From positions 1,920,001-1,984,000 of the forward strand of contig OZ251518.1 in the NCBI GenBank assembly GCA_965242965.1: a stretch of 64,000 bases of DNA, read 5' to 3'. Below are positions 7,861 to 10,544 of the stretch, piece after piece. Source of the stretch: Candidatus Poribacteria bacterium (GTDB lineage: Bacteria; Poribacteria; WGA-4E; WGA-3G). Under the pieces are notes generated by a model. The model was not told the origin of the DNA and made no database searches. It saw only the letters and a program-made list of their open reading frames with translations. Within the stretch, counting starts at the first letter, position 1. The number at the start of each line of letters is the position of its first letter. A program made the translations under genes and the position numbers.

Positions 7861-10544
7861 GGGCCCTCGATGGGCTCCTCCTTCCCGAAAACAAACGCTC
7901 CATCAACAAAATCGGCGGCGATGGCATCACCATTGACGAAAGCACGTTCCAACATCTGAATCGCCAACGGATTGAGGATATCGCGCTGAAGCACTCGCCG
8001 AAGCGGACGCGCACCGTAAACCGCGTCAAAGCCGCGTTCTACAAGTTCCGCCGTTGCCGCATCGGATAGCGTGAGCGTCATCTCCTTCTCCGCAAATCGG
8101 GTGCTGAGGTGCGCGAGCTCCAGCGTTACGATACGTTTCAGCTCGTCCCTGCCGAGCCGCTCGAAAATCACAAGATCATCAATGCGGTTCAGGAATTCCG
8201 GCGGGAAATGGGCGCGCAAGGCATCCATTACCTTCCTACGGAGTTCCTCCGCCATCAACCGCGCATCGGTAATCCACTGACTGCCGATGTTCGAGGACAT
8301 GATGACGACCGCGTTCTTGAAATCGACGGTGCGTCCCTGTCCATCAGTCATCCTGCCATCGTCCAGCATTTGGAGGAGGACGTTGAATACCTCCGGATGC
8401 GCTTTCTCCACTTCGTCAAGCAAGATAACGCAATAGGGTTGCCGCCTGACAGCCTCGGTAAGTTGTCCGCCTTCATCGTAACCGACATATCCCGGTGGTG
8501 CGCCGATGAGCCTTGAGACGGTGTGCTTCTCCATGTATTCGCTCATGTCGATGCGCACCGTGGCGTTGGCATCGTCAAACAGGAATTCGGCGAGGGATTT
8601 GGCGAGGTGCGTTTTCCCTACGCCGGTCGGTCCCATGAAGAGGAAGGAGCCGAGCGGTTTGCCCGGGTCGCCGAGTCCGACGCGCGCTCGCCGAATTGCG
8701 TTGGATACGGCCGAGACTGCCTCGTCTTGCCCGATGACTTGTTCGCGCAGTCGTTCCTCCATGTGGAGGAGTTTCTGGGTCTCGCCTTCCATGAGACGGG
8801 AAACGGGAATGCCTGTCCATTTCGCGACGATTTCAGCGATGTCCTCCGCGCTGACGTGTTCTTTGAGGAGGCGCGTATTGCATCGAGACCGGGAGGTCTC
8901 TCCTACCGTAGGAGGGACATCCTTGTCCCGATTGCCTACGCCTCGCGAGCCCGAGGTCTCTCCTACCGGGGTTTCTCCTGCTGCTTCCTCGCGTAAGGTT
9001 TGCAACTGCTTTTCAAGAGCCGGGATTCTGCCGTATTCGAGTTCGGAGGCTTTACCCAGGTCGCCGCTCCGTTTCGCTTGTTCGGATTCGATGCGGAGTG
9101 CCTCAATCTGCTCCATCAGTTCGCGGATTTGCCCCAAGTTCGCCTTTTCGTTCTGCCAGTTGGCTTTGAGTGCGTTTGCGCGCTCTTTTAGTTCGGCGAG
9201 TTCGGCGTTGAGTTTTTCAAGGCGTTGCTTCGCTGCGGCATCCTCCTCCTTCATCAACGCCTGCTGCTCAATCTGAAGTTGGATGATGCGGCGTTCGACT
9301 TCGTCAATCTCCTCTGGCACGCTATCAATCTCAATGCGGAGCCGAGAGGCGGCTTCGTCCACCAGATCTACGGCTTTGTCCGGCAGAAAGCGTTCGGAGA
9401 GGTAGCGTTTTGAAAGCGTTGCGGCGGCGACAATCGCATTGTCCTGAATCTGCACGCCGTGGTGCGTTTCATAACGTTCCTTCAGTCCGCGCAGAATCGC
9501 GATGGTATCCTCAACGGAGGGTTCCAGCACCTGAACGGGTTGGAATCGGCGTTCGAGGGCGGCATCTTTCTCAATGTGCTTGCGGTATTCGTCAAGCGTT
9601 GTCGCGCCGATGCATCGCAATTCGCCGCGGGCGAGTGCCGGCTTCAGCATATTCGACGCGTCCACGGCTCCCTCCGCCGCACCTGCGCCGACGATAGTGT
9701 GGAGTTCGTCAATAAAGAGAATGACTTGTCCCTCTGCCTGTTCAATATCAGCGAGGACTGCCTTGAGCCTGTCTTCAAATTCACCGCGATATTTACTGCC
9801 TGCGATGAGCGCGCCTAAATCCAGCGCGATGAGCCGTTTCTCGCGCAGCGTCTCCGGCACGTCGCCATCTGCGATGCGTTGCGCGAGTCCCTCTACAATC
9901 GCCGTTTTGCCGACACCCGGTTCGCCGATAAGCACGGGGTTATTTTTGCGTCTGCGGGACAGCACCTGCATCACGCGGCGGATTTCATCGTCGCGCCCGA
10001 TAACCGGGTCAAGTTTGCCGGCGAGTGCCTCCTCTGTGAGGGCCCTGCCAAACCGAGTCAGTGCCTGGTATTTGTCCTCCGGGTTCTGATCCGTGACGCG
10101 CTGATTGCCGCGGATGTCAACGAGTGCCTTGAGGATTTTATCCTTCGTGATACCGGCATCCCGCAGGATTTTGCTGGTGTCACTCTGTTTCGTTTCTGCG
10201 CAAGCGATGAGGAGATGCTCGGTGCTGACGTATTCGTCCTTGAGCGTCGTCGCCTCCTTCATCGCATTGTCCAAAACGGCTTGGAGCGCGGCGGAGATAT
10301 ACAGTTCTGAACCGGTGCGTTGCACTTTCGGTGCTTTCTGAACGGCTTCCTCAAGCGCGGTTTTGATGCCGGCTGTCTCTGCACCCAGTTTCTGAAAAAT
10401 GGGTGTGACAATCCCATCGGTTTGCGTGATGAGTGCCAACATGAGGTGTTCAACGCTGAGTTCTGGGCTTTGCGCTTCGCTGGATAAACTTTGCGCTGTT
10501 TGTAGGGCTTCTTGTGCCTTGATTGTTAGTCTATCGGGTTGCAT
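7857..10544 (-). CDS. clpB: ATP-dependent chaperone ClpB, with a 31-aa repeat-derived insertion
   Basis: Two AAA+ modules ([16 protein letters not shown]), [18 protein letters not shown], coiled-coil M-domain, GARPLRR. Confidence 0.97.

Follow-up and report, generated by a model that had tools for sequence, protein, structure and literature searches.

A variable in-frame array of GTAG-headed hairpin repeats in the ClpB gene of a Candidatus Poribacteria lineage

Introduction

Repetitive extragenic palindromes (REPs) tagged by GTAG were surveyed by Di Nocera, De Gregorio and Rocco (2013, BMC Genomics 14:522; PMC3733652), and that survey places them in many phyla, as several families per genome that form clusters and inverted dimers and lie mostly between genes, with termini that often provide the TAG stop codon of a flanking open reading frame (ORF). 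It also describes REPs inside known genes, where dimers or groups code for 20-30 aa and clusters for 43-82 aa; flexible linkers or loops are proposed there to take up intragenic insertions, which would be tolerated or neutral in such places, and the question of continuing copy formation is left to future work (PMC3733652). Here we analyse repeats of this kind that lie in frame within the gene for the disaggregase ClpB of a Candidatus Poribacteria bacterium, a sponge symbiont, using a stretch of 64 000 nucleotides (GenBank assembly GCA_965242965.1, contig OZ251518.1, positions 1,920,001 to 1,984,000), which as a whole is referred to below as the window. The insert had been noticed earlier from the letters of the window and the translations of its ORFs (the original prediction).

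Other small hairpin elements are known from different settings. Rickettsia palindromic elements (RPEs) were reportedly described by Ogata et al. in 2000, systems of REPINs and REP-associated tyrosine transposases (RAYTs) by Nunvar et al. in 2010 and Bertels and Rainey in 2011 (PMC3116915), and bypassed GC-hairpin inserts ('byps') were reportedly found in a yeast mitochondrial genome by Lang et al. in 2014. The presumed mobilising enzyme of REPINs is a tyrosine transposase with a single gene copy, and REPs in general are usually treated as extragenic. Our literature search returned no paper in which a palindromic element, ClpB and in-frame insertion occur together and no link of Poribacteria to REPs or RAYTs among the texts checked; a match for 'RAYT' in PMC8546597 turned out to be an author name in the reference list, and each of the other papers listed has the term once. 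As to the 2013 survey, Poribacteria are not named in the part of it at hand, and the four supplementary files searched hold one DnaJ entry and no match to ClpB (PMC3733652).

Results

The insert in ClpB and its repeat units

The ClpB encoded in the window contains a segment of 31 residues that consists, in frame, of GTAG-headed hairpin repeats of two families in the order B, inverted C, B. The features of the gene, in coordinates of the window, are the following.

7857..10544, minus strand: coding sequence of ClpB, 895 aa including the insert (ORF list, translation, Pfam and solved ClpB chains)
8877..8969, minus strand: in-frame repeat-derived insert, residues 526-556, 93 nt, 31 aa (sequence and translation; gap between two HMMER stretches against solved ClpB)
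8940..8966, minus strand: first B-type GTAG unit, in gene orientation, hairpin decayed; core 8953-8966 with 0 mismatches (aligned to intergenic B units)
8908..8929, plus strand: C-type GTAG unit, inverted relative to the gene and read as RDKDVPPT; 0 mismatches to the 22-nt C unit; 6-bp stem, 4-nt loop
8877..8906, minus strand: second B-type GTAG unit with conserved tail; core 8893-8906 with 0 mismatches; perfect 6-bp stem, 8885-8906
8967..8978, minus strand: G-E-T-P in translation, with a 9-nt stretch one base off the B core; this may be what is left of another B unit
7839..7860, minus strand: B-type unit whose GTAG head provides the TAG stop codon of ClpB (hairpin scan and gene-end comparison)

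In translation, the insert is preceded by ...REEAAGET and followed by TRLLKEHV.... An alignment matches it unit by unit to the B and inverted-C modules found between genes, and the complete order B, inverted C, B occurs again in intergenic DNA at 30037-30127, with a related arrangement at 61003-61090. The tail of the second B unit, down to 8877, is also present in intergenic copies. The first B unit (8940-8966) failed the perfect-hairpin filter of the repeat scan. The strand of the insert folds at -22.7 kcal/mol (z = -2.06), and 5 of 200 shuffles fold equally well. Because the stretch of 9 nt within 8967-8978, upstream in the gene, is only one base from the B core, the repeat-derived part may slightly exceed 93 nt; at this possible remnant, ClpB relatives of 873 aa read GETSRAR.

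Variation of the insert among Poribacteria

The 120 best database matches were taken as relatives. They are ClpBs from Poribacteria, with identities of 82-98%, and 5 of them bear the source name 'Candidatus Poribacteria bacterium'. The original prediction had expected the insert to be absent or variable in orthologs, and this is what the alignment reveals: 69 of the 120 closest relatives have a short loop and lack the insert, and the remaining 51 have repeat-like sequence of varying length, with a measured segment of 10 to 76 aa. By the sequence found in this place, the aligned rows are distributed as follows.

69 rows, 860 aa in most (range 860-867, and one of 909): native loop, which is short, e.g. 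ETLETDAQGT
33 rows, 870 aa (three 884, one 894): VGEPSRSR-type, matching the B variant with CCC in the stem
5 rows, 873 aa: GETSRAR or GETSGSR, then a short tail
3 rows, 863-872 aa: short forms, EDAVGATSRA-like in two rows, and one 16-aa form
1 row, 876 aa: VGEPSAPQKPVEEPSRS
9 rows, 893-932 aa: B-coded units (VGETSxSR) and C-coded units (RDKDVPPT) in arrays

Among the 33 rows of VGEPSRSR type, the exact motif occurs in 9 and VEEPS-type variants in 24. The group of 893-932 aa includes the window's own protein, and the near-identical P0002 and P0003 share its three-unit plan. On a tree of 38 rows, built after the insert columns had been removed, all 25 repeat-bearing rows fall into one clade (Shimodaira-Hasegawa-like approximate likelihood ratio test, SH-aLRT, 100), the 13 rows outside it all have a segment of 10 aa, and the segment changes its length at least 12 times. 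Within a subclade of 13 rows, with branches of about 0.005-0.02, segment lengths of 17, 37, 39, 57, 61, 75 and 76 are found. Alleles of differing unit number reside on separate contigs, several of at least 5 Mb. P0001 and P0002 differ at 4 positions of the measured 39-aa segment at an identity of 98% over the whole protein; as judged from the aligned sequences, the insert diverges faster than the remainder of ClpB.

The C-terminus of ClpB is variable too. In the repeat-bearing clade, 5-6 extra variable residues (EPIEGP, EPIPVP, KPIRSP and others) follow ...FVFxKE (7857-7880 in the window), and the 860-aa forms terminate in ...FVFRKA. This tail may have been remodelled by the REP abutting the stop codon.

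The place of the insert in the protein

In the window's ClpB, Pfam identifies Clp_N, AAA (204-321), AAA_lid_9, AAA_2 (629-790) and ClpB_D2-small, both AAA+ modules being intact, and the translation of each module has a GVGKT P-loop and DE-containing strands. With Clp_N, two AAA+ modules, a coiled-coil M-domain in the first of them and the D2-small domain, the protein has the architecture of ClpB/Hsp104. Solved ClpB chains match it with E = 0 over both halves, and the match splits into two HMMER stretches around the insert: query residues 519-555 occupy the place of residues 518-522 of Escherichia coli ClpB, a loop of about 5 residues, and query residues 522-558 that of residues 522-527 of Mycobacterium tuberculosis ClpB. 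In an AlphaFold2 (AF2) model, from which we used only helix boundaries and local confidence, the long M-domain helices extend over residues 411-431, 436-493 and 496-522 with predicted local distance difference test (pLDDT) scores of 72-84, and coil with a pLDDT of 24-35 runs from residue 522 through the insert until the next helix at 566. Measured between two conserved anchors, the segment has 51 aa in the window, whereas 70 ClpBs from diverse bacteria have 14-31 aa there and most often 22; this distant outgroup was drawn from at least 79 loci of 51-64% identity, of which 9 were dropped (longest ORF below 780 aa). The alignments thus place the insert at the junction where the last M-domain helix leads back to the first ATPase module, in a loop whose length is modestly variable across bacteria, and the model suggests that it is probably a disordered linker.

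Each checkable element of what the original prediction had said of the insert agrees with these results. Its reading of the segment as translated B, inverted C and B units that elsewhere are mostly intergenic is in line with the cores free of mismatches and with the intergenic position of 145 of the 170 units counted in the window; the length of 93 nt, the preserved frame and the integrity of both AAA+ modules are corroborated by translation and Pfam. Mapping on solved structures, in which the loop is short, also places the insert in a linker, as had been proposed, and does so at the junction of the M-domain and the first nucleotide-binding domain.

GTAG repeats across the window

We scanned the window for GTAG followed by a hairpin and counted as units those with a stem of at least 6 bp. 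A perfect hairpin follows 180 of the 429 GTAG sites, and the repeats fall into four families, each beginning with GTAG: A (about 100 copies; 25 nt, 8-bp stem, 5-nt loop), B (about 33 copies) and C (18 copies), both with units of 22 nt, a stem of 6-7 bp and a 4-nt loop, and D (about 29 copies by the classifier, 23 of them among the 170 units; 25-27 nt, stems of 8-10 bp). Altogether there are 170 units, which cover 4134 bases, and 74 clusters, which cover 6037. Inverted pairs and clusters are a frequent arrangement of units (e.g. A+ A- A+, D+ D- and B+ C- B+), and a module of B followed by inverted C recurs. The 14-nt B core has 51 matches in the window at up to two mismatches versus 0.16 expected, a number that none of 100 shuffles reached, and the 22-nt C unit has 19 at up to three mismatches versus 0.00 expected. 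Rfam matched no RNA family anywhere in the window.

The location of units was judged against 45 genes backed by Pfam or by conserved relatives. Besides the 145 intergenic units, 8 straddle a gene end and 17 lie within ORF limits, 10 of the latter in the first 9% of the ORF. Eight of these early units belong to the PepS10 and HlyD ORFs, which have a later in-frame Met after the repeat stretch; the other two lie in an ADP-ribosylglycohydrolase ORF and in a membrane-protein ORF, the latter being the first unit of its ORF. Truly internal units therefore number seven, two in ClpB (its decayed third unit is not counted by the filter) and five in one other gene. Arrays within genes have periods of 33, 48 and 75 nt, and intergenic arrays additionally have periods of 35, 41, 52, 56, 58 and 62 nt.

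Single units are open in most frames: A units are free of stops in four frames in 97 of 97 cases and in a fifth in 96 of 97, and B (32 of 32) and C (18 of 18) units in five frames. The sole closed frame of A, B and C units is the one that reads G|TAG. We also considered an enrichment of open frames in whole REP clusters and rejected it, the proportions being 264/444 (59%) versus 4952/8880 (56%) in length-matched controls.

Repeats are also found at gene boundaries. Of 44 complete genes, 23 stop at TAG, and 18 of these 23 read GTAG; in at least 8 genes, ClpB included, a REP unit can be recognised of which this GTAG forms the head (examples of stop codons are at 2445, 7857, 13519, 15953, 27755, 37631, 39555 and 55370). 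At the other end of genes, a serine carboxypeptidase-like ORF and an HlyD-like ORF are extended upstream through REP arrays (47182-47410 and 51807-52060, plus strand), and the in-frame Met at residues 77 and 86, respectively, past the repeat stretch, may be the real starts of these genes.

Other genes with translated repeats

The five remaining internal units belong to a gene at the end of the window.

61980..64000, plus strand, running off the window: membrane protein conserved in Poribacteria, with a full length of 892 aa (P0126, the protein of the window itself; alignment of relatives)
63037..63058, minus strand: B-variant unit, inverted within the gene and read as REREGSPT (hairpin scan, alignment)
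63792..63974, array from about 63780, both orientations: A-type REP array, the part within the window (hairpin scan, translation)

The ORF opens at 61902, and the real start of the gene is probably the Met at 61980; the protein is without a Pfam match. Most of its relatives have 745-770 aa, within a range of 712 to 956 aa. The 8 extra residues of the REREGSPT unit are present in 5 of 18 aligned rows and absent in 13. The A-type array reads VGRGPVPRHA three times and then, through inverted units, IAGDRPPRYG; it amounts to about 109 aa in P0126, is absent or present as a single unit in several relatives and is far more extended in P0127, a protein of 956 aa. Beyond the array, the protein resumes in frame with its C-terminal part, which is conserved. 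Since a second gene of the window behaves like clpB, the proposal that the repeat system creates peptide segments is a fair one.

We also probed the protein database with 41 residues comprising the ClpB insert and its flanks; this gave 37 candidates with 12 matches, which is no proteome-wide census, and four of the matches are not ClpB. Among them, P0123 is uninformative. P0125, from a related genome, is built of two halves that are paralogs of each other (38% identity, E = 1e-76). A B-coded peptide connects them in frame, and a loop of the second half alone contains two tandem B units; such a structure may reflect a gene fusion through an intergenic REP. P0122 was set aside, as it looks like a false ORF running through repeats.

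Several further features of the window are worth recording. A TPR gene and a gene with a HigB_toxin domain occur twice in tandem (32318-33660 and 33856-35280, minus strand), with REP arrays between the copies. Long direct duplications at 29435-29964, 42186-42504 and 21903-22145 have periods of 268, 127 and 128 nt with 95-97% matches, and the latter two include A-type REP units. Within a coiled-coil ORF (56987-57862) there is a tandem repeat of 42 and 75 nt (57199-57618, about 10 copies, 65-90% matches), which has no relation to the GTAG repeats. Finally, a nickel-insertion (LarC-like) gene is spread over two overlapping ORFs, 1067-1834 and 1807-2310 (plus strand), which correspond to Pfam model positions 1-237 and 240-375, the split being a frameshift, real or programmed.

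Discussion

Origin and fate of the insert

Based on these observations, we consider it likely that the insert is a small array of GTAG-type REPs that was mobilised into clpB, is translated as a linker and has since been gained and lost. The repeats have the properties of REPs: hairpins of 20-40 bp with an unpaired GTAG end, present in high copy number, mostly extragenic and arranged in inverted pairs and clusters. GC-rich GTAG-headed hairpins have densely colonised this Candidatus Poribacteria lineage, and a B-type unit would have landed in clpB at the root of one Poribacteria clade or close to it, in the surface loop through which the chain passes from the final helix of the M-domain back to the first ATPase module. 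Since the units have stops in one frame out of six only and had entered a loop, an insertion of a multiple of three nucleotides would leave the disaggregase intact, and the repeats would be read as a linker that is probably disordered. Units might then have been gained and lost at this site, giving rise to alleles that range from a remnant to about seven units, including the B, inverted C and B of the window. The family resemblance of the units suggests that a RAYT-type tyrosine transposase may mobilise them and that they would have moved as single-stranded hairpins. Since every allele has a length divisible by three and is free of stops, we infer that the segment is actually translated; for ClpB it is most probably a neutral or near-neutral change.

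Several observations weigh against this scheme or narrow it. No Y1/RAYT transposase family was detected among the 136 window ORFs of at least 100 aa (Pfam, E <= 1e-5), a search that covers 64 kb of a contig of about 5.66 Mb. Whole REP clusters are stop-free no more often than control DNA of equal length, so that the filter would lie simply in a length divisible by three, combined with a frame without stops and a position at which the protein tolerates extra residues. Taken as a whole, the AF2 model is of poor quality (mean pLDDT 50.8; predicted template modelling score, pTM, 0.25), and the ATPase modules score low as well, so the low pLDDT is not specific to the insert. Among the matches listed, the genome scan gave only ClpBs of 51-64% identity. 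Furthermore, the shortest alleles within the clade, P0014 and P0016 (10 aa), already resemble a B unit (VGATSRA), and the event at the origin may perhaps have been a replacement and not a plain insertion. Element boundaries, target site and the order of events rest on protein alignments, and part of the copy-number variation among short-read assemblies could be assembly error.

Transposition is not the only process that changes the length of a tandem array. It is possible, although we find it the less probable course of events, that a single founding insertion was followed by replication slippage or unequal recombination of tandem 33-nt units, which would explain all later change of the ClpB array with no further transposition. 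The longer alleles indeed contain head-to-tail runs with a period of 11 aa (33 nt), three times in P0005 and as SPVGETSxSRH runs in P0049; tandem 11-residue units are also carried by P0124 and P0125, tandem arrays of identical unit types occur between genes as well, and the changes of segment length in ClpB fall on very short branches. However, the window allele mixes two families in opposite orientation, for which slippage of one unit is insufficient, P0005 to P0008 hold both C and B runs, and mixed modules identical in type are found at several intergenic sites. Mixed families and orientations at the ClpB site, as read from the sequences, thus need more than single-unit slippage. The two processes are not mutually exclusive and are indistinguishable from protein sequences, and a large share of the length change may stem from slippage or from recombination of tandem units with each other. 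In this respect, the word 'actively' in the original prediction rests on the length variation between alleles, which slippage or recombination could yield as well as transposition.

The open frame of the alleles bears on the other explanations. RNA or protein splicing, or ribosomal bypass, might remove the segment from the mature protein, and the insert does end in Asn followed by Thr, in superficial likeness to the C-terminal junction of an intein; GC-rich hairpin elements bypassed by the ribosome are known from a yeast mitochondrion. Nevertheless, an intein would have to be much longer than 31 aa, ClpB has no Pfam match to an intein or Hint domain, and Rfam finds no intron or other RNA family in the window. 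Each allele, whatever its unit number, is in frame and stop-free, which neither bypass nor splicing would demand, and we regard such removal as very improbable. Improbable in the extreme is an assembly artefact produced by the abundant repeats. Although such a repeat density confuses short-read assemblers and several relatives are on short contigs, other contigs encode P0002 and P0003, which have the three-unit architecture as well, the contigs that carry the window's ClpB and P0004 measure 5.66 and 5.74 Mb, and the frame is kept in all variants; the origin of the alleles from different contigs, several over 5 Mb, argues against an artefact. It is tempting to speculate that the variable linker is instead adaptive, its tether length tuning M-domain repression of ClpB or dependence on DnaK, with selection keeping the polymorphism. 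The site is the base of the regulatory M-domain, the frame is open in all 51 alleles with extra sequence, and the repeat-bearing state has persisted through the whole clade. Yet we think this unlikely, given that similar arrays in an unrelated membrane protein and in P0125 point to tolerance rather than a ClpB-specific function, that the 4 differences in 39 aa between P0001 and P0002, set against 98% overall identity, suggest relaxed constraint, and that short-remnant and long alleles are interspersed on the tree.

Significance

The original prediction overrated the novelty of the insert, since intragenic GTAG-tagged REPs coding for 20-30 aa or more in known genes are described in the available parts of the 2013 survey (PMC3733652). 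What is noteworthy here is the density of the repeats, the allelic series at one site of a conserved chaperone and a second gene with a larger translated array. As close relatives carry ClpB alleles with no repeat, a remnant, three units and up to about seven units, and a second gene in the window behaves alike, the turnover of intragenic REPs becomes directly measurable, and so does the birth of disordered peptide segments from selfish DNA. There are also practical consequences: gene callers will yield many false ORFs and false N-terminal extensions in such genomes, and differences in protein length between Poribacteria strains may be mere repeat copy number. For ClpB biology, the natural series of linkers at the base of the M-domain is a ready-made experiment, in which we expect neutrality. 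A bolder idea, to which we give little credence, is that translated REP arrays serve as fast-evolving, length-variable disordered linkers in essential proteins of this Poribacteria lineage, in which case a ClpB M-domain tether of 10 to 76 residues between near-identical strains would amount to a series of differently regulated disaggregases. If true, this would constitute a natural record of REPs that are still gained and lost inside genes.

Comparison with known systems

The repeats resemble REPIN/RAYT systems in having GTAG-headed hairpins that often form inverted doublets and reach hundreds of copies. In contrast to REPINs, which are described as extragenic, the doublets in ClpB pair two families (B with C), and no RAYT gene was seen in the 64 kb analysed here. 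With byps they have in common that small GC-rich mobile hairpins reside within protein-coding genes. However, byps reportedly break the frame and are skipped by the ribosome, whereas the ClpB alleles are all in frame and stop-free, which points to translation.

Like RPEs, the units are palindromes inserted in frame into genes that are probably still functional, to which they add peptide segments. The RPE host is an obligate intracellular alphaproteobacterium, unlike Poribacteria, RPE-1 is much longer than the units described here, and we know of no comparable copy-number series at one site for RPEs. According to the part of the 2013 survey at hand, RPEs carry a CGTC end (PMC3733652), whereas our units are headed by GTAG and are 22-27 nt long, and the insert is therefore similar to RPEs in action without being a member of that group. 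The Rickettsia parallel drawn by the original prediction accordingly stands insofar as in-frame insertion of a palindrome works alike, but the closest parallel is found in the intragenic GTAG-tagged REPs, as far as the available parts of the survey describe them (PMC3733652). These, too, are hairpins of 20-40 bp with an unpaired GTAG end, mostly intergenic and in some cases intragenic. The Poribacteria repeats differ from what those parts contain in forming an allelic series of gain and loss at one site and in building arrays that attain about 109 aa in the membrane protein of the window and more in P0127.

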